A stretch of 64,000 nt of DNA from Candidatus Latescibacterota bacterium (lineage in GTDB: Bacteria; Latescibacterota; UBA2968), in NCBI GenBank assembly GCA_965208125.1, contig OZ242320.1, forward strand, positions 1,632,001 to 1,696,000. Direction: 5' to 3'. Below, piece after piece: positions 16,850 through 43,394 of the stretch. The position numbers were made by a program, and so were the translations under genes. The number at the start of each line of letters is the position of its first letter. Positions within the stretch are counted from its first letter, which is position 1. Under the pieces are notes generated by a model. That model worked only from the letters and a program-made list of their open reading frames with translations, had not been told where the DNA came from and made no database searches.

Positions 16850-16861
16850 AAAATTGCTCGT

Positions 16862-18629: not shown

Positions 18630-19529
18630 TTAAAACGTAAAAATAGATTCAAAAGCAAACAGGGTTACTTCCGAATCAATATCGCGGCGCAATTCGGCCA
18701 ACACACCCCAGTTATCTGTAATCGCGTAGCTGGGACTAAAAGTAATCTCCGTAAACTTTCCATCGGCATCTGTATCCAGACCGCTATAGCGCACCGTGGC
18801 ACCGACCTTGTCGGACAAAGCCATATTGCCCATTAAAATCCAGCCATAGCCACTATTGCCACTTTCCCCCCAGTTCGCCAGATAGTTGTATTCCGCAGCC
18901 AGTGTCACAGGACCCGTGGCATACATCCCCCAGGCATTGAGAAGCGACTGTTCAAAACCACCCATGTCTTCCCAGAGGTACGCGACCTTGGCCGTAAATG
19001 CTTCAGCAGGGGTAAAAGCAACCTGTGCTTCAAAACCCAGGTCGTCAAAACTGGTATCGGATCCATCCCACACGCTGGAGACAACAGAGCCAAAGAATCC
19101 AACTTTGCCATTGCCAAACCCCACAGCGGCACCGTTTTGATAACCACCATAAACAAGCGTGGCAGAATAAGAATATTGATACAAGCCCGTGGGTTCTGCG
19201 GTCTCCCAACCCGAACAACTCAAAAACTTACCCCCCGTAATACTAAATCCATTCGATGCTTTGTAAGTCACAAAAGCCTGTTCGAGATCTACAGAGCCAC
19301 CACTGAGACTATTGATATCGGCCTGGGCTGACAGCCCGTGGCCATAACTGTAGAGCAAATCAACTTCAAACTGATCAAAGGACAGATTATTGGATTTGGA
19401 TTCCGTGTCATACGTTGACGACATATCGAAAAATCCCGTGACCGTGAAATTATCTGTAATTTTGATCTGAGCAAACGACGAAGTGGCCGAAAAAACCACA
19501 AACGCGAGAAGCAGCAACAGTTTTTTCAT
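18630..19529 (-). CDS. Outer-membrane beta-barrel/porin
   Basis: Signal peptide, EQAFVTY..GKF motif, alternating beta-strand pattern, C-terminal Phe. Confidence 0.8.
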   Translation of the reverse strand: MKKLLLLLAFVVFSATSSFAQIKITDNFTVTGFFDMSSTYDTESKSNNLSFDQFEVDLLYSYGHGLSAQADINSLSGGSVDLEQAFVTYKASNGFSITGGKFLSCSGWETAEPTGLYQYSYSATLVYGGYQNGAAVGFGNGKVGFFGSVVSSVWDGSDTSFDDLGFEAQVAFTPAEAFTAKVAYLWEDMGGFEQSLLNAWGMYATGPVTLAAEYNYLANWGESGNSGYGWILMGNMALSDKVGATVRYSGLDTDADGKFTEITFSPSYAITDNWGVLAELRRDIDSEVTLFAFESIFTF

Positions 19530-19571
19530 TTTTTTCTCCTTTTATGGGCGGAACAATCGAATTGCTATTCA

Positions 19572-20837
19572 CTACTGTTTGAGAGTATAGGTTCCCATGT
19601 ACTTGACATGATCGCAATCTTTGTCCGCACTCGTGATATCGTCCCAGGGATCGGGAGCGACGAGGCCATCGGTCTCATATACAATTTTAAATTGACCGTT
19701 CTTGCGGATCTCGCCAATCAGCACGGGTTTGTGCAAATGGTGATTCACCGGATCCATCATCACCGTACCCCCCGGACCGTCAAATTTGAGACCGTAGAGC
19801 GCGGGACGCACGGCATCAACATCAAAAGAACCGGCTTTCTCCACTGCGGCCTTCCAGAGATAAACACCCACATAAGACCACACAATGGGATCATCGGTAA
19901 CCCGCTTCGCACCACCAGGCAACCCATTTGCCGCACAATAATCCTTAAACTTTTTCACAAACGCGCGATTTTCTGCAACGGGAATGGACTGGAAATAATT
20001 CCAGGCAGCCAGATGACCAACCAGAAACTCCGTATCCATCGAACGCAACTCATCTTCAGCAACAGAAAACGCCATAATCGGGCACATCGCCGATGTGAGA
20101 CCCTGATTGGCAAATTCCTTATAAAACGGAACATTGGAATCGCCATTAATAGTAGATAAAACAGCCGCATCGCCATTGGCGGCAAAGCGCTTGATCTTCT
20201 GAACTATGGTCTGATAGTCCTGGTGGTGAAAAGGCGTATATTCTTCAATAATATTTTCTTCAGGCACACCCTTGTGCAGCAAGAAAGCGCGAAGAATCTT
20301 ATTCGCGGTACGCGGGAAAACATAGTCCGTACCCAGCAGATAAAACTTCTTATAACTACCCCCTTCTTCACTCATCAGATATTCGGCAGCGGGAATCAAC
20401 TGCTGGTTGGGCGTAGCACCGGTATAAATAATATTCCGAGAACACTCCTCCCCTTCGTATTGAACCGGATAAAAGAGCAAACCATTACTCTCTTCAAAAA
20501 CCGGCAAAACAGACTTGCGCGAAACCGAAGTCCAGCAACCAAAAGTCACAGCTACCTTCTCTTCCCGAAGCAGCATTTTGGCTTTCTCGGCAAACAAATC
20601 CCAATCCGATGCCGGGTCAACAACCACGGGTTCAATCTTCTTTCCCAGCACACCGCCATTGGCATTGATCTCTCCAACAGCCATAAGCACGACATCGCGC
20701 AGTGAAACCTCAGAGATAGCCATGGTCCCGCTCAGAGAGTGCAACACGCCGAGCTTAACCTTCTCCTCTGCCTGAACAGAAAGACCTGTAGTGCATAACA
20801 GTGCAGCGGCAAACAAAATATTCAAAAACTTTTTCAT
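19572..20837 (-). CDS. urtA: Urea ABC transporter substrate-binding protein
   Basis: LHSLSGTMAISE, FGCWTSVSRK, YPVQYEGEE; start MKKFL at 20837 with GGAGG RBS. Confidence 0.97.
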   Translation of the reverse strand: MKKFLNILFAAALLCTTGLSVQAEEKVKLGVLHSLSGTMAISEVSLRDVVLMAVGEINANGGVLGKKIEPVVVDPASDWDLFAEKAKMLLREEKVAVTFGCWTSVSRKSVLPVFEESNGLLFYPVQYEGEECSRNIIYTGATPNQQLIPAAEYLMSEEGGSYKKFYLLGTDYVFPRTANKILRAFLLHKGVPEENIIEEYTPFHHQDYQTIVQKIKRFAANGDAAVLSTINGDSNVPFYKEFANQGLTSAMCPIMAFSVAEDELRSMDTEFLVGHLAAWNYFQSIPVAENRAFVKKFKDYCAANGLPGGAKRVTDDPIVWSYVGVYLWKAAVEKAGSFDVDAVRPALYGLKFDGPGGTVMMDPVNHHLHKPVLIGEIRKNGQFKIVYETDGLVAPDPWDDITSADKDCDHVKYMGTYTLKQ

Positions 20838-21162
20838 ACGTGTGATACCTCCATCCAATGTGGTTTGTGATACATCGAAAAAACAAAATCTTTTTAACAA
20901 ATGGGTTAGCCAGAGAAAAGCCTCCTTTCAACAAAGCGATACCCGATGTGGTCATTGTGACGGGCAAAAAATTACAGTCAGATTATTTCAGAAAGATTAA
21001 ACAGAGATAAACTCGATATTTCTTTATTTTTTTATTTGGAACTGAAATTTTAAGACAGCACCTTATTTTCAACGTGGATTTTCTGCTGTATTTCGAATAT
21101 CTTAAACATGGCCGTTGACAACCGCGCTTCTTTATCTATACCATTAAATCAATGAGGCTTGC

Positions 21163-22584: not shown

Positions 22585-23013
22585 ATGCCACATTCGAAAA
22601 TTACCTCCAGCCACCGGATCACTATCCCCAAGCCGGTGTTTGAAAAACTCGGCCTCAAAGTGGGTGATATGATTGAGGTAATTGAAGAGAATGGAAAAGT
22701 CGTCCTCATACCGCAGCAGATGGTATATAGTCCCCCAAAGCTTTCAAAAAGAGAACAGGAGATTCTCGCACGGGCAAAAGACAAGATCAAGACCATCAAC
22801 GAGGATATGCTTAATTCCAAAGGATTAACCGAGGCAGAGGCCAACGTGGCTGTGAAAACAGGTCTAATCGATCCGGAGCAGAAGTACTGGTGGCTGGAGT
22901 CATGGCAGAGAGGCGAGCGGGAAGCTGAGCGAGACGAGCGGGAGGGTCGATCTTCCAGTACATTTGAAACAGCAGAGGGTCTCCTTACCCACCTTCATAA
23001 ACAGCGTGCATGA
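22585..23013 (+). CDS. AbrB/MazE-family antitoxin
   Basis: RITIPK...LGLKVGD AbrB domain; C-terminal EQ.YWW..WQ.GEREA motif; ATGA overlap with the toxin. Confidence 0.85.
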   Translation: MPHSKITSSHRITIPKPVFEKLGLKVGDMIEVIEENGKVVLIPQQMVYSPPKLSKREQEILARAKDKIKTINEDMLNSKGLTEAEANVAVKTGLIDPEQKYWWLESWQRGEREAERDEREGRSSSTFETAEGLLTHLHKQRA

Positions 23014-23267
23014 AAATCGTCACCGAGAAATCATTTGACCGTGACTATGCGCGGCTGCCACGGAATATCCAGGAGCGCGTTGACAAACAGCTCTCTCTTC
23101 TCTTTGCCAATCCACATCACGGTTCTCTCCAGACCCAGAAGATGCGAGGTCAAGCCGATATCTGGGAAGCCCGCGTCACCGGAAGTTACAGATTCACATT
23201 CAAGATCGTGGGCGATACGTACCGTCTGCGCCGAGTTGGGACTCATGAGATTTATAGAAAGCCGTAA
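23010..23267 (+). CDS. RelE/ParE-superfamily toxin
   Basis: 85 aa; NP.H.SL, WEARV..YR.TF, RRVGTHEIY. Confidence 0.85.
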   Translation: MKIVTEKSFDRDYARLPRNIQERVDKQLSLLFANPHHGSLQTQKMRGQADIWEARVTGSYRFTFKIVGDTYRLRRVGTHEIYRKP

Positions 23268-23314
23268 GAAATGCCTACAGGCCCGCTATTTGGCAATTTT
23301 TTTCACCCACTCAT

Positions 23315-23346
23315 ACACGAGTGGGTTTTTTATTTTACAACATCAC
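23315..23346 (+). terminator. Intrinsic terminator
   Basis: ACCCACTC-loop-GAGTGGGT followed by a T-run. Confidence 0.75.
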
Positions 23347-23379
23347 TCCGCGAGAGGTGAAAAGACAGATTCGGTCTTG

Positions 23380-23408
23380 TTGCATTCTGCTCCCTGACCT
23401 GCTATAAT
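23380..23408 (+). promoter_or_regulatory. Sigma70-type promoter
   Basis: TTGCAT-17 nt-TATAAT, with TG of an extended -10. Confidence 0.65.
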
Positions 23409-26029: not shown

Positions 26030-26043
26030 ACAATAATGACAAA

Positions 26044-26127
26044 AACCTTCTGGATCGCGGCTCAAAACCATGCCGCGATGACACCGGCCTATCGTCACGC
26101 CTGCATGCCTTAAGCAGGCGTCCAGGG
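26044..26127. repeat. Palindromic repeat doublet
   Basis: Copy of the 9491 hairpin followed by a second hairpin ACGCCTGC...GCAGGCGT. Confidence 0.65.
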
Positions 26128-26177: not shown

Positions 26178-26909
26178 ATGAAAGTCGTAATCTACGGAAG
26201 CAACGGCCAGTTGGGACCGCACGTAGTCAAAGCACTGGAAGGACATGTAGATCTGCGCTTAACCGACCTGGAGCCATTTGACACCCCGCACGAAATGATG
26301 ATCGTAGATGTATCAGACCCCGATGCGGTCGCGCGCGCGGCAGAGGGCATGGACGCAATCATCAACCTATCGGTCTTGCGCCCCCACCGCCAGATCGCCT
26401 TTGATGTCAACACCCTGGGATGCTACAACATCATGCGCGCAGCGGTCGCACACGGGATCCCGCGGGTCATCAACACAGGACCGCACTTCACCGTACAGGG
26501 CGCACCCTACGAGGCACTGGATTACAACCTCGGTCCCGATGTCCCCCCCAAACCCAGCACAAATCTGTACGCCCTATCCAAGGGCCTGGGACAAGAAATC
26601 TGCCGAATCTTTGCCGAGCAGAGCGACGTCTATGTATTGTGCTACTTATTCTACATCTTCTGCTATCACGACGACCTGTCGAGACCCGGACTGAACCGCC
26701 CGTTCCTCGTAACCTGGCGAGATGCGTCAGCCGCGTTCTTACCGGGCCTGACCATCGACCTCAAAACCCTGCCCTCGCAATGCGAAGTCTTCAACATCTT
26801 TGCAAACCGACCACACCAGAAATTCTCAAACGAAAAAGCAAAGCACATTCTGGGATGGCAGCCGAAGGATGATCTGACGCATACCTATACAAAGGAAAAC
26901 AGAACATGA
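26178..26909 (+). CDS. NAD-dependent epimerase/dehydratase (uronate dehydrogenase-like)
   Basis: GSNGQLG Rossmann loop, YALSK catalytic motif. Confidence 0.8.
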   Translation: MKVVIYGSNGQLGPHVVKALEGHVDLRLTDLEPFDTPHEMMIVDVSDPDAVARAAEGMDAIINLSVLRPHRQIAFDVNTLGCYNIMRAAVAHGIPRVINTGPHFTVQGAPYEALDYNLGPDVPPKPSTNLYALSKGLGQEICRIFAEQSDVYVLCYLFYIFCYHDDLSRPGLNRPFLVTWRDASAAFLPGLTIDLKTLPSQCEVFNIFANRPHQKFSNEKAKHILGWQPKDDLTHTYTKENRT

Positions 26910-28135
26910 AAATCCGACCCGACCTCGTCCCGGAGACCGAGCGGAACAACCTCGAAGTCATCCAGCTCACGGATGAAACGGTCCCCTCATCACACATCTA
27001 CATGGAAGCGCAGATCTTCACGCCCGACTCCCAGCGGCTAATCATTCACCGATCTGCACATCCCCACGGCTCTGACCCAAAAGACCCGGAGCACCAATTC
27101 CTCATCTGCGACCTCGAAGACCATTGCAGCTTAACGCCCATCACCACCGAACTTGGAGCCACGGGACCATCCATCTCGCCCGATGGCGAATGGCTCTACT
27201 ACTTCGTCAACGAAACAGAGTCTGGAGGCGGACGCCTGACACTCAAGCGCGTCAAAATGGACGGAACAGAACGCGACATCATCTATGTCCTGGACCACCC
27301 CATACCCGATACCGACTTCAGATTGAGCCGACCGTATCCGCTCTCGACAATCTCATCCGATGGCAAGCGCATCGCAATCTCGGGATTCCTCGGCGACGGC
27401 AAAACCGCAGGCGCGCCCTGGGGCCTCCTCGTCTTTGACATTGAAAAACCATCCGTACGCCTGATCTTTCACGGACCCTCCTGGTGCAACATCCACCCAC
27501 AATACACGCGCCAGATGGACCCTATCGCCTCCCACGACATCATGATCCAGGAAAACCACGGCAACACGGCAACACCCGACGGCAGCGTAGAAACGCTCGT
27601 CAGTGGGCAGGGCGCAGACATCCACCTGATCCGTGACGACGGCACCGCACTGCGCGACTTTCCCTGGGGACGGGACGGAAACGAATTCTGCCAGGGGCAT
27701 CAATGCTGGCAGGGACAAAGCGACATCGCCATCACCAGCACCAGCACACGCGAACCCGCCGAAAGACAACTCATCTCCGGACGCGCTGCGCCTCACGTCG
27801 GCGACGAAGGCATCAACACCCCGGGTGGCTGGCGAAACGACCTGTCCCGATCCTTCGACGCGCCCGACTTCTGCCACTTCGCAACAGACATCGACGGAAA
27901 GCGGTTAATCACAGACGCAGGTCCAATAGATGCGGGCGGAGCCGTCTGGCTATTCGACCTCCCCGAAGAAAAGGAAGGCGCGCTCGCAAACGCGCGGAAA
28001 GTCGCAGACCCCGGATCGTCCTGGCAAAAGCACACACACATCCATCCCTTTCTCTCTCCGGATGGACAGTCGGGCTTCTTCAACTCCGATGAAAGCGGAA
28101 CATTACAGGCGTATATGGTGCGCGGTTGGTCTTAA
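26906..28135 (+). CDS. Oligogalacturonate lyase-like beta-propeller protein (gene A below)
   Basis: HIY....FTPD N-terminal motif, SPDG repeats, C-terminal HIHPFLSPDG...FNSD. Confidence 0.7.
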   Translation: MKIRPDLVPETERNNLEVIQLTDETVPSSHIYMEAQIFTPDSQRLIIHRSAHPHGSDPKDPEHQFLICDLEDHCSLTPITTELGATGPSISPDGEWLYYFVNETESGGGRLTLKRVKMDGTERDIIYVLDHPIPDTDFRLSRPYPLSTISSDGKRIAISGFLGDGKTAGAPWGLLVFDIEKPSVRLIFHGPSWCNIHPQYTRQMDPIASHDIMIQENHGNTATPDGSVETLVSGQGADIHLIRDDGTALRDFPWGRDGNEFCQGHQCWQGQSDIAITSTSTREPAERQLISGRAAPHVGDEGINTPGGWRNDLSRSFDAPDFCHFATDIDGKRLITDAGPIDAGGAVWLFDLPEEKEGALANARKVADPGSSWQKHTHIHPFLSPDGQSGFFNSDESGTLQAYMVRGWS

Positions 28136-28141: not shown

Positions 28142-30088
28142 TTGAAAGGAGATACCAAATTGATTCCCCGACAAGTGCTATTCGGCAACCCGGAAAAATC
28201 CATGGCTCGGATCAGTCCCGACGGCGAGTATCTGAGCTACCTCGCGCCAGTGGATGGCGTCTTGAACGTCTGGATCGCCACAGTAGAAGATCCTGACTCA
28301 GCCAGACCGATCACCAAAGACGCGGAACGCGGCATCCGCTACTACGACTGGACCTATGATGGCCAGCACATCCTGTACTACCAGGATGCAAAGGGCGATG
28401 AAGACTGGCATGTGTACGCCACCAATATCGCCACAGGCGAGACCCGAGACCTGACGCCCTTTGAAAAAGTCAACGCGCAGATTCTCTCGGTCAATGAAAA
28501 GACGCCCAACGAAATCCTGGTCGGCATCAACAACCGCAATCCGCAGCTACACGACGTCTATCGAATCGAGCTTTCCACTGGCGAGCGGACCCTCGTCGAA
28601 GAGAATCCGGGCTTTGTCTCTTACCTGTTCGACAACGACGACCGCACGCGTTTTGCCATGACATTTTCGCCGACCGGGGGACAGGAGATCCTCCGACGGG
28701 ACGAGAACAACCAGTGGCAACCCTTCATAGAGGTCCCCAACACCGACGCCCTGACGACCTATCTGACCGGCTTCGACAAATCAAACCAGATCCTCTATAT
28801 GATCGACAGCCGCAAGCGAAACACAGCCGCCTTGTTCACCCTCGATCTGGAATCTGGCAAACAAGAACTGGTGGCCGAGGACGACCGCGCGGATGTGGGC
28901 GGGATATTGGTTCATCCGACAGAGAAACATGTGCAAGCCGTGTCGTTCATTTACGACCGCAACCGCTGGCACGTGCTGGACCCGGCGATACAAGAGGACC
29001 TGGATTACTTGCACGCGGTGGAAGACGGCGAATTGTCCATCACCAGCCGCACGCTCGACGACCGCTTGTGGACAGTGGCCTACGTCCTGGACAACGGGCC
29101 GGTCAAATACTACCTGTACGACCGCACCAGAAAGCAGGCGAATTACCTGTTCAGCAACCGCACGGACCTGGACGAATACCAACTGGCCAGGATGCATTCG
29201 CTGAACATCAAATCCCGCGACGGATGGAATCTGGTCAGCTATCTGACGCTCCCCCCCGACAGCGCCCCCGACGGCGACGCTCGGCCGAGCAATCCGGTAC
29301 CGCTGGTTTTACTGGTTCACGGGGGTCCCTGGGGACGCGACATCTGGGGCTACGATCCGCAGCATCAATGGCTGTCAAACCGCGGTTACGCCGTGCTGAG
29401 CGTCAACTTCCGCGGCTCGACCGGCTTCGGCAAGGAATTCACCAACGCCGGCAATGGCGAGTGGGCCGGCAAAATGCACGACGACCTGATTGACGCTGTC
29501 AACTGGGCGATCCGCGAAAAGATCACGCAGCGCGACCAGGTGGCGATAATGGGCGGCAGCTACGGCGGATACGCGACCCTGGTCGGATTGACCTTCACCC
29601 CCGAGACATTCGTCTGCGGCGTCGATATTGTCGGCCCGAGCAACCTCGTCACGCTACTACAAAACGTGCCGCCTTATTGGGTTCCGATCCTGCCGATGAT
29701 GAAAGACCGCGTAGGTGACTGGACCACAGAGGAGGGCCAGCAATCCTTGCTGGACAAATCACCGCTCGCGCGCGTAGATCAGATCCAGCGGCCGCTGCTG
29801 ATCGGCCAGGGAGCCAACGACCCGCGCGTCAAGCAAGTCGAATCCGATCAAATCGTCGAGGCGATGAAACAAAAAAACATCCCCGTGACCTACGTGCTTT
29901 ATCCGGACGAAGGGCACGGATTCGCACGACCGGAAAACCGATTGTCGTTTTACGCCGTCGCTGAGGCGTTCTTATCTGAGCACCTGAGCGGACGGTTTGA
30001 ACCGGTCGGAGAGGACTTTCAAGGATCGAAAATTCAGGTACCAGAAGGCGCGGACCAGGTCCCCGGACTTCAGACGGCCCTGACGTAA
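28142..30088 (+). CDS. S9 family peptidase (acylaminoacyl/dipeptidyl peptidase)
   Basis: VHGGPW, GGSYGG nucleophile, NDPRV, DEGHGF; start may be the TTG at 28160. Confidence 0.95.
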   Translation: MKGDTKLIPRQVLFGNPEKSMARISPDGEYLSYLAPVDGVLNVWIATVEDPDSARPITKDAERGIRYYDWTYDGQHILYYQDAKGDEDWHVYATNIATGETRDLTPFEKVNAQILSVNEKTPNEILVGINNRNPQLHDVYRIELSTGERTLVEENPGFVSYLFDNDDRTRFAMTFSPTGGQEILRRDENNQWQPFIEVPNTDALTTYLTGFDKSNQILYMIDSRKRNTAALFTLDLESGKQELVAEDDRADVGGILVHPTEKHVQAVSFIYDRNRWHVLDPAIQEDLDYLHAVEDGELSITSRTLDDRLWTVAYVLDNGPVKYYLYDRTRKQANYLFSNRTDLDEYQLARMHSLNIKSRDGWNLVSYLTLPPDSAPDGDARPSNPVPLVLLVHGGPWGRDIWGYDPQHQWLSNRGYAVLSVNFRGSTGFGKEFTNAGNGEWAGKMHDDLIDAVNWAIREKITQRDQVAIMGGSYGGYATLVGLTFTPETFVCGVDIVGPSNLVTLLQNVPPYWVPILPMMKDRVGDWTTEEGQQSLLDKSPLARVDQIQRPLLIGQGANDPRVKQVESDQIVEAMKQKNIPVTYVLYPDEGHGFARPENRLSFYAVAEAFLSEHLSGRFEPVGEDFQGSKIQVPEGADQVPGLQTALT

Positions 30089-30099
30089 ATGAGAACCAC

Positions 30100-31065
30100 A
30101 TGCCAATCTCCCTCAACCCCATCCGCGACGACCTGATCACCTGGGCGGAATCCCTCCATCTCCCGGACACCGGAGCCTTCCGCAATGGCGACGCACCTGT
30201 GCCCAGCCTTCCCAGCACCCTCTTCATCACCTATATTTTATACAGCATAAACGCGCTCGACGCAGTCGTGCTTAACCGCACAAAATGGATCGCCTGGATC
30301 CTGTCACAACAAAGCGAACAAGACGGATCCTTTGCCTTCCCACCCTCAGACAGGCGAGGGATCGCCCTCTGGAACGCAGTTCGCGCACTCAACATACTGG
30401 GCGCCCAGATCCTCCGATTCCCCGACGACCAGCGCAACGCAACAACCGTCACCGGACTCCACCAGTGGTTCAAAACGTGGAAAGCATCTGGCGACACCCA
30501 TCACGAGGTCCTCGCGCGCGTACCCATGCTCGTCAGCCATCCAGACCCCGCGTGGGCCAACGCTTTCTTCGACGAACTCGCCGCACAACAGCACCCCGCG
30601 CTCGGAACATGGCCCGCTGAAGGACCCACCAACATCAGCCGCACATTTGCCTACAGCCTGATCTACACAGGAATGGACAAACTCCCGCCACAACCTGAGA
30701 AAATTATAGATGCCATGCTAACTCTCCAGGAGAAAAACGGCTTCTGGCACGGACGTCCCAACTTTTCAACCATGGACGCGGTCTATCTCCTATCCCGACT
30801 GCCAAAAGCCACCGGGTGGCGCGAGACAGAAGCAAACGCCGCGCTACACCGCACAGCAGATGCACTCATCCCCTATTACAAAGCGCACGCAGAACGCGAC
30901 AAGCAGGACACCCATCAATTCGCGGCCACCGTACAAACACTCGCCCTGCTATACGAAGCATTGCCCCGGCGATTTACAACATCGCACCCGTGGCGATTCG
31001 GATGGAGCAACAAAGCGTTCTGGCAATGCCGCGTAATCAAAGAGAAACTAACCGTCCATTATTAA
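30100..31065 (+). CDS. Hypothetical protein with prenyltransferase/QW-like alpha-toroid repeats (gene B below)
   Basis: Repeated Q...G.F/W motifs (SQQSEQDGSF, QQHPALGTW, LQEKNGFW). Confidence 0.6.
   Translation: MPISLNPIRDDLITWAESLHLPDTGAFRNGDAPVPSLPSTLFITYILYSINALDAVVLNRTKWIAWILSQQSEQDGSFAFPPSDRRGIALWNAVRALNILGAQILRFPDDQRNATTVTGLHQWFKTWKASGDTHHEVLARVPMLVSHPDPAWANAFFDELAAQQHPALGTWPAEGPTNISRTFAYSLIYTGMDKLPPQPEKIIDAMLTLQEKNGFWHGRPNFSTMDAVYLLSRLPKATGWRETEANAALHRTADALIPYYKAHAERDKQDTHQFAATVQTLALLYEALPRRFTTSHPWRFGWSNKAFWQCRVIKEKLTVHY
30922..31041 (+). repeat. Direct repeat copy 1 (3' end of gene B)
   Basis: 116/120 nt identical to 33417-33536. Confidence 0.95.
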
Positions 31066-31069
31066 CACA

Positions 31070-31261
31070 CGAAAACGGGTCAAGTCCAAGATACGAACAC
31101 TGGATGAGGCCCAGTTCCCAACGGCATTCGGCTTGGCGATGGAAGCAGAGGAATACACACAGGTAAGGGAGAAGCAGGTCAAAGAGGCACTATCGGACAT
31201 GGAGCATCTGGGGCTGGACGATCTACTGATGAACCTGATGACCTCAGCATGGACATTATAG
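31070..31261 (+). pseudogene. Start-less gene fragment (RKRVKSKIRTLDEAQF...SAWTL)
   Basis: About 63 open codons with protein-like composition and no RBS or start; identity unknown. Confidence 0.35.
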
Positions 31262-31281
31262 ATCAAGAACAGAACGCAGAC

Positions 31282-31336
31282 AGGACCTGGTCTGGGGATC
31301 GAACTCGACGAAAGCGGTCGTCAATAAACATCGTGC
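31282..31336 (+). repeat. Degenerate copy of the 3' end of gene C (34651-34720), continuing at 32619-32634 after the IS
   Basis: 30/31 nt identity at the start; TAAGGTTGCGTAAAA resumes after the IS. Confidence 0.9.
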
Positions 31337-32618
31337 GTGACTACTCCCAACGGTAGAGCAGTTGGGCTTCTTGGCGGTCAATCCGCCTGACGTTGTAGCC
31401 CCAACGTCAATATGTTTATCGCAGCATTGTGGTCTCTGTCCGTCTTATAGCCACACGCCTTGCAATGATGCACACGCTCAGAAAGTGCTTTCTTCTCTCT
31501 ATGTCCGCATGCAGAGCAATCTTGTGACGTATATTCAGGATCAACGGCCTTGAATCCAATACCAGCCTCTTCCGCTTTGTATTTGAGACAGTGCCGAAAC
31601 AGGGACCATGCTACGTCTGCTATTGATTTAGCCAATCGCTTGTTCTTTTGCATCTCTTTAACGTCCAATTTCTCTACGGCTATGAATCCGTGACGATTGA
31701 CCATTTTTCTTGATTCTTGATGAGCAAAGTTATGTCGTTTATTACGGATACGCTCATGCACTCTACCAATGACTTTACGACGCTTTTCTCTTACGGCGTC
31801 CGTCTTAGGTCTTTTTTTTACCGCGTCCCATTTGCGCTGTGCTCTCTTCAGAGACTTTTCCTCTTTGCGAAAGAATCGCTGATTCTCTATTTTCTGTCCG
31901 TCACTGGTCACAGCAAAGGAATTGAGACCCACATCAATGCCAACAGCAGAGTTAGTGTTTGGTTTCTTATCTTTTTCGCCAATATCGCAAGAGATAGATA
32001 CAAACCATTTGCCTGTTGCTGTGCGTGTGATTGTGCAAGACTTAGGGATACCTAAGAGTGACCTGTGCTGGACAATGCGAATGCAACCAATACTGCTCAA
32101 TCGCAAGCCCTTGTCGTCCAATCGGCATCCATTGGCAAACTGAGGATAGGTGATAGAATCATAGCGATTCTCATTCTTGTATCTGGGAAAGCCAGCTTTC
32201 TCGCCTGTCTCTGACTTCTCTTTGAGACGCCGAAAGAATCCTTTGAATGCCAAATCTACTCTTGCTGACACTTGTTGCAACACTTGACTATATACTTGCT
32301 TGAAAGCGGCGTGTTGTTGTTTTAACAATGGTATTGTTTTGGTCTGGTCATATTGCGAGAGAGACTTATTCTCATTTTTCCATGCTTGTATTCTGGCACA
32401 GAGTAGTTGATTATAGAGAATACGACATTCGTCAATATGCGCCAGCAAGATTTGTTCTTGCTTTTTGGTCGGACGCAATCTGTATTTTAATGACTTAACC
32501 ATAATAAAAATATATACTTATATGCATTTTTTGTCAAGATTTTTATCGCTAAAGCAATACCAAAATCACAAGCCCTCATATCCCAACGCTAAAGCTGTTG
32601 GGTTTTACGGGCTGTTTG
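31337..32618 (-). mobile_element. IS200/IS605-family element, TnpB-only (IS1341-type), 1282 bp
   Basis: Related subterminal hairpins CCCAAC...GTTGGG at both ends. Minus-strand left flank is TTAT and the right end is TCAC. No target duplication; removing the element restores the gene C copy. Confidence 0.9.
31378..32502 (-). CDS. tnpB: RNA-guided endonuclease TnpB
   Basis: KYRLRP HTH, GFPRYK, RuvC D (GIDVG), E (VEKL), D (DRDHNAA), CxxC..CxxC zinc ribbon. Confidence 0.97.
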   Translation of the reverse strand: MVKSLKYRLRPTKKQEQILLAHIDECRILYNQLLCARIQAWKNENKSLSQYDQTKTIPLLKQQHAAFKQVYSQVLQQVSARVDLAFKGFFRRLKEKSETGEKAGFPRYKNENRYDSITYPQFANGCRLDDKGLRLSSIGCIRIVQHRSLLGIPKSCTITRTATGKWFVSISCDIGEKDKKPNTNSAVGIDVGLNSFAVTSDGQKIENQRFFRKEEKSLKRAQRKWDAVKKRPKTDAVREKRRKVIGRVHERIRNKRHNFAHQESRKMVNRHGFIAVEKLDVKEMQKNKRLAKSIADVAWSLFRHCLKYKAEEAGIGFKAVDPEYTSQDCSACGHREKKALSERVHHCKACGYKTDRDHNAAINILTLGLQRQAD

Positions 32619-32624
32619 ATAAGG

Positions 32625-32653
32625 TTGCGTAAAATTGCAACATTTGCTATAAT
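32625..32653 (+). promoter_or_regulatory. Sigma70-type promoter of the VapBC pair
   Basis: TTGCGT-17 nt-TATAAT with TG extension. Confidence 0.6.
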
Positions 32654-32689
32654 TTATTGCTTCCATGACATCATTAAAGGATTTTAGCC

Positions 32690-32944
32690 ATGAATAAAAT
32701 GATAAAAACAAAAGTAACAGCGCAAGGCGTTTTGATCCCTCGGCAGTTGTTAGAAGGAATTGAGGAAGTTGAAATAAAAAAAGAAAATGATGTGATTACA
32801 ATTATGCCGACGGGACAGATGAACGCCTGCGGTAGTAGTACACAGCTTGATCCCATTTGGAATCTGGGTGAAAATCCAGTCGAATGTGGTATTTCAGATG
32901 CTTCCGAACAGCATGACAAATATTTGTATGACACATCTTCATGA
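32690..32944 (+). CDS. AbrB-like (VapB) antitoxin
   Basis: QGVLIP AbrB-type strand; DASEQHDKYLY tail typical of VapB; ATGA overlap. Confidence 0.8.
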   Translation: MNKMIKTKVTAQGVLIPRQLLEGIEEVEIKKENDVITIMPTGQMNACGSSTQLDPIWNLGENPVECGISDASEQHDKYLYDTSS

Positions 32945-33354
32945 ACACAAATATATTCTTTCTTGATACAGGTTATCTCATTGCCCTTGAAGCTTCTAAC
33001 GACAAAAATCATACACGCGCAAAAAATCATTGGCGAACTTTTATTCGCACACGCCCGTCTTTAGTGACCACCTCCTTTGTTTTCGATGAGGTGGTCACTT
33101 TTTTTAATAGTCGAAATCGACACGAAAAGGCCGTTGAAGTTGGCTCGCACCTCTTGAATAGTCCTTCTGTTCAGCTAATCCAGGTGGATGACGCCCTTTT
33201 TCGCAAAGGTTGGGAATATTTCGAGCAACATTCAGATAAGCTCTACTCTTTGACAGATTGCATTTCATTTGTTGTTATGCAGCAACGGAAAATTCAGACT
33301 GCCCTAACTTTTGATAGGCATTTTACGCAAGCCAATTTTTTGACCATTCCCTAA
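32941..33354 (+). CDS. vapC: PIN-domain VapC toxin
   Basis: FLDT, DE, SLTDCISF, TFDRHF. Confidence 0.92.
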   Translation: MNTNIFFLDTGYLIALEASNDKNHTRAKNHWRTFIRTRPSLVTTSFVFDEVVTFFNSRNRHEKAVEVGSHLLNSPSVQLIQVDDALFRKGWEYFEQHSDKLYSLTDCISFVVMQQRKIQTALTFDRHFTQANFLTIP

Positions 33355-33356
33355 AT

Positions 33357-33406
33357 CTCCTGAAAGTGGCATACTACAGGCGTATATGGTGCGCGGTTGG
33401 CTTTGA
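33357..33406 (+). repeat. Copy of the 3' end of gene A (28084-28135) including a stop codon
   Basis: 26-nt identical core TACAGGCGTATATGGTGCGCGGTTGG. Confidence 0.9.
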
Positions 33407-33416
33407 GTAGGACTAA

Positions 33417-33587
33417 GCGGCCACCGTACAAACACTCGCCCTGCTATACGAAGCATTGCCCCGGCGATTCACAACATCGCACCCGTGGCGATTCGGATGG
33501 AGCAACAGGGCGTTCTGGCAATGCCGCGTGATCAAAAAAGCATTGACCGCATTGCCACACACCAGCACAGGAGCACATCAACCATGA
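33417..33587 (+). repeat. Direct repeat copy 2, probable original 3' end of gene B
   Basis: 116/120 nt identity to 30922-31041; its frame ends in TGA overlapping the ATG of gene C. Confidence 0.9.
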
Positions 33588-34708
33588 AAATCACCGATGT
33601 AGAAACCATCGTAATCAAAAACATCCAGCCCTATCGCGGGGGGCGATACTGGCTCTTTGTCCAGCTCATCACAGACGAAGGCATCGTGGGATTAGGCGAG
33701 CGCCCCTCGGGAAATGCCACCAATCTGGACGCCCAAATCAGCCTCATCAAAAACCTGTGTCAGCAATTCGCCATTGGCACAAGCCCCTTTGACATCGAAA
33801 GCCTGTGGCAGCGCATCTTTGCGTCCCGGCACGACTACCGACACCCCGGCCTCGACGCAACACCCGCCTTGAGCGCCATTGAAATGGCGTGTTGGGACAT
33901 CGTCGGCAGAGCACTGAACCAGCCCATCTACAACCTGCTCGGCGGCAGGGTCCACGACAAACTCAGGGCTTATGCCTATATGCCGACCGACGGCATCTGG
34001 GAAAATCCAGAACGCGCTGGCGAAATCGCAACCCGTCTGGTCGCGAATGGAAACACCGCCTGCAAATTCGACCCCTTCCACCCCATCTTTCCCCACCCGC
34101 GCGACTTCCCACTCAAAACCATCCGCCACGTCGCCAAAATATTCAAAAGCATCCGGGACGCAGTCGGCGACGAATTGGAAATCGGCATCGGCACCCACGG
34201 ACAATTCAGCACATCTGGCGCAATCCGCGTGGCAAAAGAACTGGAAGAATTCAGCCCCTTCTGGTTCGAAGAACCCGTCCCCCCGGAAAACATCGACGAA
34301 ATGGCCCGCGTCGCCGCTCATACCAGCATCCCAATAGCCACGGGCGAACGACTCGTCACCAAATACGAATTTGCCGAACTCCTGAAAAAACAGGCCGCGC
34401 AAATCCTCCAATTAGACGTGGGACAATGTGGCGGAATATTGGAATCTAAAAAAATCGCCAGCATGGCCGAAGCCCACTACGCCCTCATCGCGCCCCACAT
34501 GTATTGCGGTCCCGTCGCCGCAGCAGCCGCAGTGCAACTCGACACCTGCTCGCCGAACTTTCTGATCCAGGAATTCAACGCCAACGACCTCCACAGCGAA
34601 ATATTCGTAGAACCAATCCAATTTGAAAGCGGCTATATCACCCCACCGATAGGACCTGGTCTGGGGATTGAACTCGACGAATCAGTCGTCGCCAAACACC
34701 GTGTGTAA
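33584..34708 (+). CDS. Mandelate racemase/muconate lactonizing enzyme family protein (gene C below)
   Basis: MKITDVE, SAIEMACWD, KFDP, GTHGQ, FEEP, TGER, GPGLG; GGAG RBS. Confidence 0.92.
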   Translation: MKITDVETIVIKNIQPYRGGRYWLFVQLITDEGIVGLGERPSGNATNLDAQISLIKNLCQQFAIGTSPFDIESLWQRIFASRHDYRHPGLDATPALSAIEMACWDIVGRALNQPIYNLLGGRVHDKLRAYAYMPTDGIWENPERAGEIATRLVANGNTACKFDPFHPIFPHPRDFPLKTIRHVAKIFKSIRDAVGDELEIGIGTHGQFSTSGAIRVAKELEEFSPFWFEEPVPPENIDEMARVAAHTSIPIATGERLVTKYEFAELLKKQAAQILQLDVGQCGGILESKKIASMAEAHYALIAPHMYCGPVAAAAAVQLDTCSPNFLIQEFNANDLHSEIFVEPIQFESGYITPPIGPGLGIELDESVVAKHRV

Positions 34709-34722
34709 GGTTGCGTAAAAGC

Positions 34723-34756
34723 AAACGCCCCAGCATAGTTTTGCCGGGGCGTTTTT
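34723..34756 (+). terminator. Intrinsic terminator
   Basis: AAACGCCCC...GGGGCGTTTTT. Confidence 0.7.
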
Positions 34757-34787
34757 GTGTGCCAGGTAAACCAATTCTCAAACCCGT

Positions 34788-36584
34788 TCACCGAAACGCG
34801 ATGCGATAAGTCAACGTATTTTCAGCATCAATGCGAGCCATCACAACCTGGCGGTTGCCGGACTTGAAACCGGTATCGGATAAAGTGAGCGCGTTTTCGG
34901 TCTCAATACAGAGAGAAACATCACCACGCGGGAGAACCGCCCCGTTCTCTATTCTGTCCATATCCCCTTTCAGAAGCGGGAGAACCTCAGTAAATGCGCC
35001 GGGGTAGTGGACAGAAACAGTAATCGCATCGCTGGCAAAAAGAACCGTCTTGCTGCCGGTTTCGCCGAGGGAATAGGTGATCTCGAGATCGCCACTGGGC
35101 AGACCGCGGATACCGGGTCGCGGTATGACCGGAACCCCATCAATCCGAAAAGCAGCAGCAATATCGGCCTTTTCGCAGAGAGTATGATTGACAACCGTCC
35201 CCCAGGCTGCATGATCTGTATCCGTTTGAGACTGCAGAACAGCACCAGCGCGAGGATGCCAGAGCAACCCCAGCCCATACCGCTGTTGAGCACTCAGCAC
35301 AGGCCCCGTATTAAAAGCTGCGTAATAAGTTGGACGACGGACAAACGTAAAAACCACCGGGTGGCGGCTATCAACCCGCTGGTGTGTAAAGTGGTCTCGT
35401 GCGATATAGGGCAACATCGCAGTGGCCGCTTTTTTTTGATCCAGCGAGGGATACCATGTAATGTGATCCCGATGCAAAAACGCATAAGGCGTAAAAGCCC
35501 AAAATTCACCGACCTGGAGCGGCGCAACAGTCGGCCAATTGGCTTCAAGACGAGCGCGCGCATCTGCAATATCCCGTGCATGTGCTTCAGCCGTGCGCCC
35601 ATAAGCGCGGGGCAACTCGAGTACTTCACCGAGCGCAGTCGTGTCAATATCCCCAGAATTAGACCTCTCGGCACCGCCGAGATTGGCGCGATACTCAGTG
35701 AGAAAAGCTCTCTGCTGGCGGGTTTCAATACCGCGGTTGAGTGCGTAACCCGTGCCATCGGGTTCGCGCACCGCATTGTAGGAAAACCAATCGTACCAGC
35801 GCCGTTCTTTTTCCAGAAAAATGGACGCCCGATCCGTGCCGCGAGCATAGTGATACGCAACGTGGATATCGCTGTGGTGAGTCCCCAGAAAATAGCCCCA
35901 ATCGGGCCCGCTGCGCTCGTAAAAATAACCCGCTGGACTCTGAAATTCCGTCAAACTCTCTTCGAGACGCTGGTCGAGCAAATGCTCGAGTTCTGCATCG
36001 GGAAAGAGATCCAGATACGCCAGCGCACCACCCCAGGCATTGGCGTACTGATTGGTAAAGTTGCGACCGTGGGTTTGCAATTCGTCCAGAGTAAAAGTGG
36101 CATAGAGCGCTTTGCGGTCAGCAGCGATAACGCGCGCGTGCAGAGCTGAATCAATGGCCGGACCGCTGTCGAGTAAATGGAGGGTTTGCCCCATAAATTT
36201 TGTGGCAAAAGCAGTGGCGGCGAGATTCCAATTGCCGGGACCGTACTCGCTAAAACGCCCATCCCCATTTTGAATGCCACACCAGAAATCAAGAGCAGCC
36301 TCAAGACGCTGGCGCAGGTCGGGTTGTGCGTAAAACACATTCCACGGGCGGTCAGTGCAAAAAAAGAAAGCCAGCGAGAGAATATTTTCCATAATACGCG
36401 CATTGTGCGGTTTGTTGTCCTTCGGATTTCGCCAGACCGAAATATTGATAAAGCCGCGATCGGGGCCGTCCATTTCAACCGCATTGACAACGCGGTGAAA
36501 ATGCGACAAATAATAAGGCAAATCGAGTTCGCTATCGGCAAAGTCAGTTGGTGAAAAATCAGCAATCGGCGCGGGATTAAGCAT
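34788..36584 (-). CDS. Hypothetical protein (helical N-terminal, beta-rich C-terminal)
   Basis: 598-aa ORF with AAGGAG RBS; no family recognised. Confidence 0.7.
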   Translation of the reverse strand: MLNPAPIADFSPTDFADSELDLPYYLSHFHRVVNAVEMDGPDRGFINISVWRNPKDNKPHNARIMENILSLAFFFCTDRPWNVFYAQPDLRQRLEAALDFWCGIQNGDGRFSEYGPGNWNLAATAFATKFMGQTLHLLDSGPAIDSALHARVIAADRKALYATFTLDELQTHGRNFTNQYANAWGGALAYLDLFPDAELEHLLDQRLEESLTEFQSPAGYFYERSGPDWGYFLGTHHSDIHVAYHYARGTDRASIFLEKERRWYDWFSYNAVREPDGTGYALNRGIETRQQRAFLTEYRANLGGAERSNSGDIDTTALGEVLELPRAYGRTAEAHARDIADARARLEANWPTVAPLQVGEFWAFTPYAFLHRDHITWYPSLDQKKAATAMLPYIARDHFTHQRVDSRHPVVFTFVRRPTYYAAFNTGPVLSAQQRYGLGLLWHPRAGAVLQSQTDTDHAAWGTVVNHTLCEKADIAAAFRIDGVPVIPRPGIRGLPSGDLEITYSLGETGSKTVLFASDAITVSVHYPGAFTEVLPLLKGDMDRIENGAVLPRGDVSLCIETENALTLSDTGFKSGNRQVVMARIDAENTLTYRIAFR

Positions 36585-41304: not shown

Positions 41305-42567
41305 ATGTTTCTCAAATCAATCAAGTTAGAGAACTTTCGATGCTTTTCGAACCATGAATTGTCGTTTGTGGACGATGATTTGGGTAACAGCATTCGCAAG
41401 ACGACAATCCTGCTTGGCGACAATGGCACCGGCAAGAGCAACCTCCTGAAGGCAATTGGCTTGGTGACTGCGGGGCGAGATGCGCTTGCCGAACTATTGG
41501 ATGAACCCGAGAGTTGGATTCAGGTAGGCAAAGAGTTCTGTCAAATAGATGCTGTTTTAAGGACAGCAGAAGGCAAAGAACAGCATGTATTTCTTCGGAT
41601 AGAAAAAAAAGATACCGTCACAAAAGTGTTAGATCGCTCCAGAGAATCGCTGGCAAAACTGGACGACGTACTGGAGCACGGGAACAATTATTTCGTGTTG
41701 GCGTATGGCGCATCTCGGCGATTGAATGTCTATAGAGGACGCCGTACCCAACTTTCTTACTACCGCCATGCACGTGCCCGTAATGTATCCACACTGTTCA
41801 ATCCCGATGAGGTGCTGATCCCCATTGAGTTATGGGCGATGGACCTGGACTATATAGAAGACCGAGGTGCGATGGATGTCATCAGTAACGTGATGTCCGA
41901 TTTTCTAAGGGATGTGAAATTCTCAAGAATCAACAAAAGAGAGGGACAACTGATTTTCGAAACGCCGCTTGGTACGGTCCCAATGAGTCAACTGAGCGAC
42001 GGTTTTCAGAACGTGGCTGCTTGGGCAGGGGATCTATTGTACCAAATTACCGAAGTCTTTAACGACTATAAAACGCCACTAAAGACACCAGGTTTGTTGC
42101 TAATTGATGAAGTGGACCTGCACCTACATCCGCGTTGGCAACGGGAGATGCTGACATTTTTGCGTCGAAAACTACCCAATTTCCAGGTCGTAGCAACAAC
42201 CCATTCACCCATTACAGCCCAGCAGGCTAACGAAAACGAACTTCACTATATCGAGAGACATGGCAGGTCACTCAAACTGCACCAGTTTACGGGTGTGCCA
42301 ATGGCGATGCTGCTGCATCAACTGGTAATGTCTGACATATTTGGTCTGGCATCGGATGAATCCGTCGTACTGGAAAAGAAAAAGGATCGCTACAAAAAAC
42401 TGTGCAAGGCCAAGCAACTCACGGATACCGAAAAGAAGGAAATGGAAAAGCTCGAAAAAGAGTTGCGCGATATGCCTGTATTGCAACGCGGAAATCTAAC
42501 CTTACAAGAGGAGCACTTGAAATTGCTGGATCAGATTCAAAAAGATTTATCGGAGCATCGTGAATGA
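41305..42567 (+). CDS. ABC/AAA ATPase, Septu PtuA-like
   Basis: GDNGTGKS, LSDG, IDEVDLHLHPRWQ, TTHSP. Confidence 0.85.
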   Translation: MFLKSIKLENFRCFSNHELSFVDDDLGNSIRKTTILLGDNGTGKSNLLKAIGLVTAGRDALAELLDEPESWIQVGKEFCQIDAVLRTAEGKEQHVFLRIEKKDTVTKVLDRSRESLAKLDDVLEHGNNYFVLAYGASRRLNVYRGRRTQLSYYRHARARNVSTLFNPDEVLIPIELWAMDLDYIEDRGAMDVISNVMSDFLRDVKFSRINKREGQLIFETPLGTVPMSQLSDGFQNVAAWAGDLLYQITEVFNDYKTPLKTPGLLLIDEVDLHLHPRWQREMLTFLRRKLPNFQVVATTHSPITAQQANENELHYIERHGRSLKLHQFTGVPMAMLLHQLVMSDIFGLASDESVVLEKKKDRYKKLCKAKQLTDTEKKEMEKLEKELRDMPVLQRGNLTLQEEHLKLLDQIQKDLSEHRE

Positions 42568-43394
42568 TACGACTGGCCAGAGAGCGCAGTGCGAATGTGG
42601 TGCATAATAATTTTACAGGAAATAAAAAAAGGGCTTTCGAGCGGGAATTACTGTACCATCAGCGAGAAATTCGGCGAAGAGACAGGAAGAAGCACGAATT
42701 TAAATCATATGTATGGAAAGCAGCCAAAGATCAGCTAAAAACAGAAACTGGGGGTAAGTGTGCGTATTGTGAAGCACCCGCTACATTGGTGGCTTATGGA
42801 GATGTAGAACATTATCGGCCCAAGAGTGTGTACTGGTGGCTGGCCTATTCATACGAAAATTATCTGATGTCCTGCACATTGTGTAATCAGAAATACAAAA
42901 AAACAGAATTTCCCACGATGAATCGTAAAATGCGTGCCCCCCTTATACGCCGTAATACGACTGATGCGTTCATCGCTCAAAAGGCTGGAACAATTGCACC
43001 AGACCCGCTTGATGACGACGCAGTTCAGGCATTTATTCAACAGCACCAGCAAGAGCGTCCTCTTTTGCTCAATCCTTATTTTGACGATCCCGCTAATTTT
43101 TATGCTTGGGAAGCAAACGATGTTCTGCGCGAAGTCGAACTCATCCCTTTGCCGACAAATTCAGAAGCTCACAAATTTGTCAATGCTGCAGATAATCATT
43201 TCGGTTTGAATCGTCAGGAACTCAAAAATGCCCGTTATTTTGAGTACGCAAGGTTCAAACTCTTTAAAAAATTGTTGAATAATACCCGCCTCCGTGCAAC
43301 GACACGGGAAGATGTAGCACAACAGATTGAGGAAATGAAATCAGATAGAGCATCTTTTGCAGGAATGATTCGTTATTTTGATACCATCTTGTAA
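42564..43394 (+). CDS. HNH endonuclease, Septu PtuB-like
   Basis: KCAYCE, VEHYRPK, SCTLCNQ, LLNPY.DDP; ATGA overlap with the ATPase. Confidence 0.85.
   Translation: MIRLARERSANVVHNNFTGNKKRAFERELLYHQREIRRRDRKKHEFKSYVWKAAKDQLKTETGGKCAYCEAPATLVAYGDVEHYRPKSVYWWLAYSYENYLMSCTLCNQKYKKTEFPTMNRKMRAPLIRRNTTDAFIAQKAGTIAPDPLDDDAVQAFIQQHQQERPLLLNPYFDDPANFYAWEANDVLREVELIPLPTNSEAHKFVNAADNHFGLNRQELKNARYFEYARFKLFKKLLNNTRLRATTREDVAQQIEEMKSDRASFAGMIRYFDTIL

Follow-up and report, generated by a model that had tools for sequence, protein, structure and literature searches.

How does a segment carrying a toxin-antitoxin (TA) pair come to lie between two genes of an operon, flanked by two copies of the upstream gene's 3' end and filled with further gene ends, with no integrase in sight? 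The question is raised by a 64,000-nt stretch of Candidatus Latescibacterota bacterium DNA (assembly GCA_965208125.1, contig OZ242320.1, positions 1,632,001 to 1,696,000), called the window below, in which a VapBC pair separates gene B from gene C. An earlier reading of the letters alone (the sequence-only reading) had offered two answers: a TA cassette that integrates serially at gene 3' ends by an undescribed route, or a divergent duplication eroded by deletions. Here, duplications in the window were sought by self-BLAST and a repeat search, 51 open reading frames (ORFs) were scanned for protein families, and 12 loci (L001-L012) from Latescibacterota metagenome-assembled genomes (MAGs), obtained from one scan with protein B that gave 1 further, spurious match, were compared. 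The answer that we favour, with a probability of about 0.6, is anchored homologous plus illegitimate recombination at a defence and TA hotspot, which would have left a long target duplication that was then eroded. Coordinates of all features are collected in Table 1.

According to self-BLAST, positions 30922-31041 and 33417-33536 are identical at 116 of 120 sites (E-value 1.7e-51), and the repeat search gives the same result. The sequence-only reading had taken this 120-bp match for the entire repeat. Its identity stands, but in full the repeat covers ~149 nt (30922-31070 vs 33417-33562), so that the insert proper is 31071-33416 (2,346 bp). The insert's GC content is 34-46% vs 53-63% in the flanks. 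The ends of genes C and A are duplicated as well (31279-31335 vs the C end at 34648-34703, 84% identity, E-value 1.4e-7; 33361-33403 vs the A end at 28090-28133, 89%, E-value 5e-7). Thus, all three duplicated gene ends that had been noticed are confirmed and are not chance matches, and the copies of C and A do lie around the VapBC pair within the insert. The three genes are not all neighbours, however, as an S9 peptidase gene intervenes between A and B. Other short repeats in the 64-kb window amount to one 42-nt palindromic element, a giant tandem-repeat gene aside.

The two copies of the B end are different alleles. The downstream copy remains in frame up to a TGA (33585-33587) that overlaps the ATG of gene C (33584-33586), which bears out the earlier view of it as the old, translationally coupled end; a long tail overlapping C in this way is found in 4 of the 5 relatives that lack any insert. 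This copy is identical to L004 at 166 of 167 sites, while the adjoining gene C is only 94.8% identical. The present, upstream end of B had been considered a replacement; its final ~30 nt are instead another natural allele of the B tail, 29/32 identical to the insert-free locus L011, which matches the upstream B end at 93.7% over 271 nt. The 4 differences between the repeat cores are transitions, each at a site where both states occur among the 12 relatives. Because all 4 are standing polymorphisms, the two copies stem from different lineages rather than from an on-the-spot duplication. The B tails vary in every filled locus, hence the last ~15 residues of the protein are free to vary.

Regarding the relatives, empty alleles of the kind that the sequence-only reading had proposed to look for do exist: B lies directly before C in 5 of the 12 loci (L005, L008, L010, L011, and L012), and both B-end repeats of the window align to the single B end of each. 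The other loci are filled. L004 shares the insert of the window, with C behind it; in L001, which belongs to the same genome as L004, this insert is present too, but next to it comes an island opening with an HmaA-type SNF2 helicase. An HmaA-helicase island stands directly after B in L002, L003, and L007, an AAA ATPase gene lies between B and C in L006, and a complete Zorya type II set occupies this junction in L009 (11525-14433; ZorA2, ZorB2, and ZorE2 with E-values of 4e-107, 4e-99, and 3e-83, respectively), preceded by an IS3-type terminal repeat. Since the fillings vary among relatives and include Zorya and the Hma island, the B-C junction is a hotspot for defence and addiction cargo. A second hotspot is located after C, where HigBA-like genes (L005), an Asp-protease pair (L008), and DUF6932 (L010) are found. 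As for the same TA pair after A or C, which had also been suggested as a check, the 12 loci contain no copy of the vapBC unit at either gene end, and what follows C in L005, L008, L010, L006, or L009 includes no vapBC remnant other than the leader and the initial ~8-12 nt of vapB. In core genes all 12 relatives stand at much the same distance from the window (88-95%), and L004 is not its closest kin.

Inside the insert the order is the tail of the upstream B copy (B'), a terminal repeat of an IS3-family insertion sequence (IS), a remnant of a small gene U, a copy of the C end (C'), the leader of the slot after C with vapBC, and a copy of the A end (A'). Read round from A', the series runs A' end, B' end, (IS3, U), C' end, leader, and vapBC, which is collinear with the operon and its two slots. 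The IS3-type end is identical at 22 of 24 sites to the inverted repeat (IR) of a complete IS3 element in L006 (14588-15845), and a similar IR follows B in L009. For the region 31089-31278 neither blastn nor tblastx gives a match in the window or the loci, and its origin was found by protein search only. U has three longer homologues (P0001-P0003; E-values from 2e-24 to 7e-12; 88, 88, and 63% identity), which contain ~60 residues that are missing here. The gap falls between the second codon and the last ~46 codons, two parts that no longer share a reading frame. Searches of Pfam, NCBIfam, and PADLOC gave no family for U.

The C' copy is split, and the sequence at 32620-32640 resumes it exactly where it breaks at 31338; its first part is up to 87% identical to L005. 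Behind the C' stop follows a leader of ~70 nt with an extended −10 motif (TGCTATAAT, 32645-32653), an AAGGA ribosome-binding site, and then the ATG of vapB, which makes it a putative vapBC promoter. Over 63-82 nt, C' and the leader together share 82-86% identity with what immediately follows the real C in L005, L010, and L008, where the leader precedes HigBA-like, DUF6932, and Asp-protease cargo, respectively. Within the window and the loci the TGCTATAAT motif occurs only after C in L005, L008, and L010 and in the three copies of the insert. Because the leader follows the real C in these three loci, C' represents the native flank on the upstream side of the slot after C, not the homology arm for integration that the sequence-only reading had made of it. 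As for A', over 62 nt it is identical to L009 and L010 at 54 sites and to the window's own A end at 48. A haplotype without the S9 gene, like L007, was considered as its source owing to a shared GGCTTT, but L007 matches at only 52 of the 62 sites, fewer than L009 and L010, whose match includes the spacer preceding S9.

The interruption of C' had been read as a scar of serial integration, whereas it is a TnpB element of the IS200/IS605 family. Excising 31338-32619 joins 31337 to 32620 and gives a continuous C end and leader, with a 1-nt ambiguity and no target duplication; since removal restores the C end, the split is an ordinary insertion of the IS200/IS605 type. The TnpB protein reaches 318 bits against NCBIfam guided_TnpB (cut-off 100) and matches ISDra2 TnpB structures over its full length (E-value 9e-51). 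The residues aligned to ISDra2 chain positions 191, 278, and 361, which we take to be the catalytic RuvC residues, are D, E, and D, in segments reading GIDVG from 188, AVEKL from 275, and DRDHN from 355. Both ends of the element contain CCCAAC-N9-GTTGGG hairpins (folding z of −3.0 and −2.2), TTAT precedes its left end here and in L006, and its terminal base, ...GTAGTCAC, is also that of the L006 and L002 copies. No TnpA (Y1 HUH) transposase was found in the element or among the 51 scanned ORFs, so the element is non-autonomous.

Two roles for this element were rejected. It does not carry vapBC: the left-end hairpin lies at ~32580-32600, 70 nt before vapB, there is no second left end past vapC, and the L006 copy comes without vapBC. 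Nor does a TnpB guide, which in this family would be taken from the flank by an omega RNA overlapping the tnpB 3' end, appear to be aimed at the real C end, as the flanking 20-mer has no other match in the window at up to 3 mismatches; by eye, 5 of its 20 positions differ from the real C end. Between the window and L004 the element has diverged further than the remainder of the unit (45/1282, or 3.5%, vs 0.7%; p 2e-7), probably owing to exchange with other IS copies. Within tnpB, the differences from L001 and L004 are clustered at 31801-32356. In L006 (14528-17155) a further copy of the TnpB element has the IS3-family element 14588-15845 lying between its left-end hairpin and its tnpB promoter.

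The toxin of the pair that all these pieces surround, VapC, matches VapC20 in the PDB with an E-value of 9e-16 and has more than 1000 homologues, the best at 89%. For VapB there is no match in Pfam, NCBIfam, PADLOC, or the PDB. A prediction of the VapB-VapC complex gives weak support for the pairing, with a score of 0.54 against 0.11 for the best of 3 controls, at least 92% of contacts agreeing between runs and a partner pLDDT (predicted local distance difference test) of at least 66. Of 78 solved complexes 51 reach the mark that it passes, as do 2 of 108 mismatched pairs; at 0.60 or less, the mark is reached by only 5 of those 78 solved complexes and by every one of the 4 mismatches (of 180) that passed. 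Likeness to already solved VapBC complexes may account for the pass. The segment is foreign and carries a VapBC pair without an integrase, in which the sequence-only reading is supported; apart from TnpB, neither an integrase nor a recombinase nor a further transposase was found among the 51 scanned window ORFs.

The unit has spread recently. The flanking genes of the window and L004 differ by 528 substitutions in 8150 sites (6.5%), while 30813-31337 and 32620-33597, the TnpB element excluded, differ by 11 in 1503 (0.73%; Fisher p 1.5e-26). In the non-functional scars, the leader, and the downstream repeat there are only 2 substitutions in 566 sites, where 36.7 are expected. Recent spread follows from an insert 99.3% identical between flanks that differ by 6.5%, and from its presence twice in one genome. 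Judged by flanking genes that are 3-8% diverged, the unit sits in three backgrounds, and movement between genomes, which had been proposed earlier, is thereby supported. The shared tract begins after a last difference at 31014 (vs L004) or 31026 (vs L001) and ends before a first difference at 33598, 11 nt past the downstream repeat. In L004 the two repeat cores are identical at 119 of 120 sites.

The genome with two copies is that of OZ242311.1, where L001:6794-13350 and L004:6794-13351 form a direct repeat of 6,564 nt with 97.1% identity, ~140 kb apart, which begins with A and extends to where the downstream B copy starts. Identity is 95-97% in its A-S9-B part, and the insert is ~100% identical with the exception of a diverged patch in vapC. 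In this patch, equivalent to 33060-33195, L001 has 20 substitutions in 136 nt relative to both the window and L004, the rest of the gene being near-identical, and it looks like conversion from another vapC allele. The ~140 kb between the repeats start with an HmaA-type helicase and end with a type II methyltransferase and a GHKL ATPase; the stretch may be a large element, brought in by homologous recombination together with a captured operon copy.

Erosion is equally visible. Within the insert, U has lost ~60 internal codons and the IS3 element is down to 24 nt. Of the downstream B copy in L001 only 24 nt remain, and an ACA(A/T)ACA microhomology marks its junction with the Hma island. Among the other relatives, only both ends of the S9 gene are left in L006 and the gene is absent in L007; of gene D, L005 keeps the last 79 nt (within 12726-12869, beside the cargo after C) and L010 the first 14 nt. 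The cargo after C in L008 includes a copy of the terminator and end of E (12891-12964). Thus, the remnants of S9 and D retain both ends, the 3' end only, the 5' end only, or nothing, and are not restricted to 3' ends.

In the account that we prefer, a conserved sugar-acid operon of these Latescibacterota has two slots for cargo, the B-C junction and the site after C, with content swapped between related genomes by the cell's own recombination, and the insert would be a patchwork from another haplotype of the same operon. Incoming DNA would pair homologously with B, and its far end would join illegitimately ~149 nt upstream of the B stop; owing to that join, the incoming B end would finish the gene and the resident end would be pushed downstream, still coupled to C. 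A' and C' would be flanks inherited from previous chromosomal settings or a duplicated copy of the operon and not functional arms. Later deletions would remove redundant or broken genes, with 3' ends surviving because the deletions end before they reach the vapBC promoter or the ribosome-binding region of C. The TnpB element would land in C' afterwards, and the finished unit would spread by homologous recombination into at least three backgrounds, where VapBC may aid persistence as an addiction module. What the data show is the anatomy, the empty alleles, the allelic origin of each piece, the deletion inside U, the nested IS, and the recent spread, whereas this order of events, the anchor with its illegitimate join, and the selection on deletion end points are what we infer.

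Several points weigh against this account. All four remnants (A', B', C', and U) keep the end with the stop codon, for which selection would be our explanation, and the origin of the junction between vapC and A' has no explanation in it. None of the 12 loci was found to be a donor haplotype, with vapBC occupying the slot that follows C. Near-identity stops close to the repeats, where exchange by long homology would more often import longer flanks; such tight borders therefore favour a donor molecule that held hardly more than the B end. In the window the upstream repeat is mosaic and points to no clean single crossover. Finally, the insert was compared in three copies (window, L004, and L001) from 2 assemblies, and a MAG consensus may mix strains.

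The first option of the sequence-only reading, a self-propagating addiction cassette without an integrase, appears unlikely. Such a cassette would measure ~2.5 kb (the insert plus one B-end repeat): host recombination between the 149-bp repeats would free a circle, a single homologous crossover would return it to the 3' end of a B gene with the gene restored, A' and C' would be arms from former targets that allow re-targeting, and VapBC would punish loss. A unit 99.3% identical across 6.5%-diverged backgrounds and found with three different A-S9-B backgrounds agrees with this, as do shared-tract borders inside or at the repeats on both sides, the near-identical repeat cores of L004, which repeat-repeat exchange predicts, and the addiction-type cargo. 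It also matches the 'virus-like life cycle' that PMC2853133, in the portion used here, proposes for restriction-modification (RM) genes flanked by long direct repeats. However, C' is the native flank of the slot after C, common to unrelated cargo, the unit is absent from the A and C ends in the 12 loci, and the supposed arms are short and diverged from the resident genes (A' 48/62, C' 84%). A single crossover left of 33522 predicts a host-derived right part of the downstream repeat, whereas the window and L004 are identical throughout 33522-33597 (P ~0.004 given the flank rate). Moreover, 0 of the 3 other TA-like modules in the window are accompanied by duplicated gene ends. The second option, a divergent duplication eroded by deletions, fits better than the serial cassette because U has an internal deletion, a relative has a second A-S9-B-insert series, and none of those three modules is so flanked; only its purely internal, transfer-free form is disfavoured, as shown below.

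The locus could also be the relic of a site-specific integrative island, which we regard as improbable. A tyrosine or serine recombinase would have inserted it, the B-end repeats would be attL and attR, and the integrase with most of the island would have been deleted later. Gene-restoring direct repeats of a 3' end are typical of integrase-borne islands according to the part of PMC2853133 cited here, and large defence islands do occupy the same junction in L001, L002, L003, L007, and L009. Against this, the 51 scanned ORFs of the 64-kb window include no integrase or recombinase, and the examined parts of the L006 and L009 inserts and the first ~8-10 kb of the Hma islands have none either, IS3 and TnpB aside. 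The other islands join after GCATTG(R) (L002, L003, L006, L007, and L009), whereas the insert described here joins after TAACACAC, and its repeats are different alleles with different tails and not one crossover core.

Somewhat more doubtful still is a tandem duplication that arose and decayed within one lineage, the insert never having been transferred horizontally. In its favour, the series B, C', vapBC, A', B', C follows the order of a repeated operon, and deletions are frequent at the locus. The repeats, however, are different alleles, the scars are closer to other species (A' 54/62 to L009 vs 48/62 to the window itself), the site after the real C is cleanly empty, and the insert differs from its flanks in GC and is near-identical across the 3-8% diverged backgrounds. 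An assembly chimera of mis-joined strain variants is very improbable, as the same structure recurs base for base, with all junctions in common, in three loci from two assemblies, one of them labelled a complete chromosome, even though the relatives are MAGs. Two other candidates were rejected: an integron, as there is no IntI in the window and no attC-like pairs by eye, and a diversity-generating retroelement as the origin of the 120-nt repeat, as the window has no reverse transcriptase and the 4 differences are ordinary transitions at polymorphic sites rather than the adenine-specific changes expected of such an element.

Insertion of RM genes with long target duplication is said to have been described by Nobusato et al. 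in 2000. The portion of Furuta et al. 2010 (PMC2853133) used here reports repeats of 46-423 bp, low-GC inserts, no other mobile element, and mostly competent species for such insertions, and it proposes a life cycle of insertion, amplification, and release, with release and re-infection then lacking experimental evidence. The present locus resembles these cases, as far as that portion describes them, in its short low-GC insert with an addiction-type module, in having no integrase, in repeats that align to one insert-free copy, and in a repeat lying over a gene 3' end, as in two Haemophilus cases there (PMC2853133). Its repeats of 120-149 nt and its insert of 2,346 bp also agree with the limits used in that part of the source (repeats >30 bp, insert <20 kb). 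In contrast, the cargo is VapBC in place of R and M genes, with no methyltransferase or restriction enzyme in 31071-33416. The insert includes a TnpB IS and an IS3 end, neither of which brackets it, its repeats are different alleles, and remnants of neighbouring genes lie within it; in addition, there is comparative evidence here for spread of the finished unit to other backgrounds. If the account that we prefer holds, the locus extends long target duplication from RM genes to a TA module.

Minimal mobile elements reportedly go back to Saunders & Snyder (2002) and Snyder et al. (2007). In the part of PMC3787668 cited here they are integrase-less hotspots exchanged through conserved flanking genes. 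The B-C junction is alike in its varying content between the same flanking genes (at least 4 different fillings and 5 empty loci among the 12), in the same, near-identical content in distant backgrounds, and in the lack of a mobility gene. Classical elements of this kind, however, are simple replacements without target duplication, whereas the tract described here ends at short repeats, outside the flanking genes.

A precedent for the displaced B end is 3'-end displacement by homology-facilitated illegitimate recombination, which the part of PMC5361080 used here describes for Rhs, contact-dependent inhibition, and type VI secretion effector-immunity arrays. There, too, an upstream anchor brings in a new 3' end with cargo and the resident end is orphaned downstream, and repeated rounds give strings of orphan 3' ends (PMC5361080, same part). 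At the present locus the upstream tail is the L011 allele and the downstream orphan is the long-tail allele, with the recombination step itself being putative. The genes here, however, belong to a housekeeping operon with no immunity-gene logic, and only the displacement of B is clearly of this type. With these precedents in the cited parts of PMC2853133 and PMC5361080, the suggestion of the sequence-only reading that the mobility route would be an undescribed one is not supported.

Two further classes bear partial likeness. Like IS200/IS605 elements with TnpB only (IS1341-like), the nested element has an intact TnpB with RuvC residues and a zinc-finger motif, sub-terminal hairpins, no target duplication, a 5' TTAT, and several copies with identical right ends, but it is a passenger in the insert that does not bracket vapBC, with no TnpA in the window. 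Like integrase-borne islands, the locus has direct repeats of a gene 3' end that keep the gene whole, but it is integrase-less, its repeats are long and allelic, and its breakpoint is unlike that of the other islands at the junction. A literature search for TA modules with direct repeats and intergenic insertion, covering titles only, returned no title that describes the arrangement.

If our preferred account is true, the locus is a worked example, from an uncultured and little-studied phylum, of TA and anti-phage cargo shuffling between diverged genomes without a mobility gene, and it illustrates that such traffic leaves duplicated gene ends which can be mistaken for a new kind of element. 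What it would add is a finished unit that moved, dead scars included, to at least three backgrounds with exchange borders at the repeats, and such borders bear on how these insertions arise and spread. If the cassette were the true explanation, the locus would instead be evidence from nature for release and re-infection, two steps in the life cycle proposed for RM genes.

Table 1. Features of the insert and of the genes around it (window coordinates)
Feature	Position	Strand	Description
Gene A	26906..28135	+	409 aa, PD40 beta-propeller repeat protein; Pfam PD40 1.7e-12; source of A'
S9 prolyl-oligopeptidase-family gene	28142..30088	+	Pfam Peptidase_S9 5.9e-42; between A and B
Gene B, present form	30100..31065	+	321 aa; C-terminus ...KEKLTVHY, then stop; orthologous loci n=12
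Upstream B 3'-end copy	30922..31070	+	left copy of the long target duplication; short L011-type tail and stop
Solo IS3-family terminal inverted repeat	31065..31088	-	outer end at 31088; element body deleted
Remnant of small gene U	31089..31261	+	ATG at 31104 and 2 codons, frameshifting internal deletion, last ~46 codons and stop
C' (copy of gene C 3' end), first part	31279..31337	+	1-nt insertion, premature TAA
IS200/IS605-family TnpB-only insertion sequence	31338..32619	-	boundaries +/-1 nt; nested in C'
tnpB	31378..32502	-	374 aa; Pfam OrfB_IS605, Cas12f1-like TNB, HTH_OrfB
C', second part, and leader	32620..32689	+	stop region 32620-32634, then shared leader up to the vapB ATG
vapB, putative antitoxin	32690..32944	+	84 aa; stop overlaps vapC start (ATGA), 4 nt
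vapC, PIN-domain toxin	32941..33354	+	137 aa; Pfam PIN 2.4e-14, 54 bits, cut-off 23.6
A' (copy of gene A 3' end)	33357..33416	+	last ~15 codons, stop, ~12 nt of the spacer after A
Downstream B 3'-end copy	33417..33587	+	displaced original end, frame open to TGA
Gene C	33584..34708	+	374 aa, enolase-superfamily sugar-acid dehydratase-like; Pfam MR_MLE_C 5.2e-62; source of C'

As for the operon genes around the insert, orthologues of gene A in 11 loci have 91-95% nucleotide identity. Gene B gives a weak match to Pfam Prenyltrans (prenyltransferase-like toroid) of 23.5 bits, below the cut-off of 26.5, and gene C reaches 271 bits against the NCBIfam galactonate dehydratase, under the cut-off of 311. 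No Rfam family was found in 30000-35000 at E-values up to 1.

The three other TA-like modules of the window are located at 22585-23394 (a MazE-like ORF and a 120-aa ORF), 46963-48278 (DUF4258 and a helix-turn-helix protein), and 48955-49646 (a second PIN protein and a 96-aa ORF). At 41305-43391 (+) an AAA_21/AAA_15 ATPase (420 aa) is followed by a 276-aa ORF without a family, and the two may form a defence pair. The 42-nt intergenic repeat, found at 9489-9529 and 26042-26083 with 93% identity, has an internal palindrome (ATCGCGGC...GCCGCGAT) and looks like a repetitive extragenic palindromic (REP)-type element or a terminator. The giant tandem-repeat gene at 54432-64000 (+) is an ORF of >3189 aa that runs off the window, with ~683-nt tandem repeats of 84-92% mutual identity and Calx-beta domains. 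Finally, at 9561-20900 (-) urease genes (alpha subunit and accessory UreD, UreF, and UreG-type) adjoin a branched-chain-type ATP-binding cassette (ABC) transporter with a periplasmic binding protein, a region that probably serves urea uptake and use.

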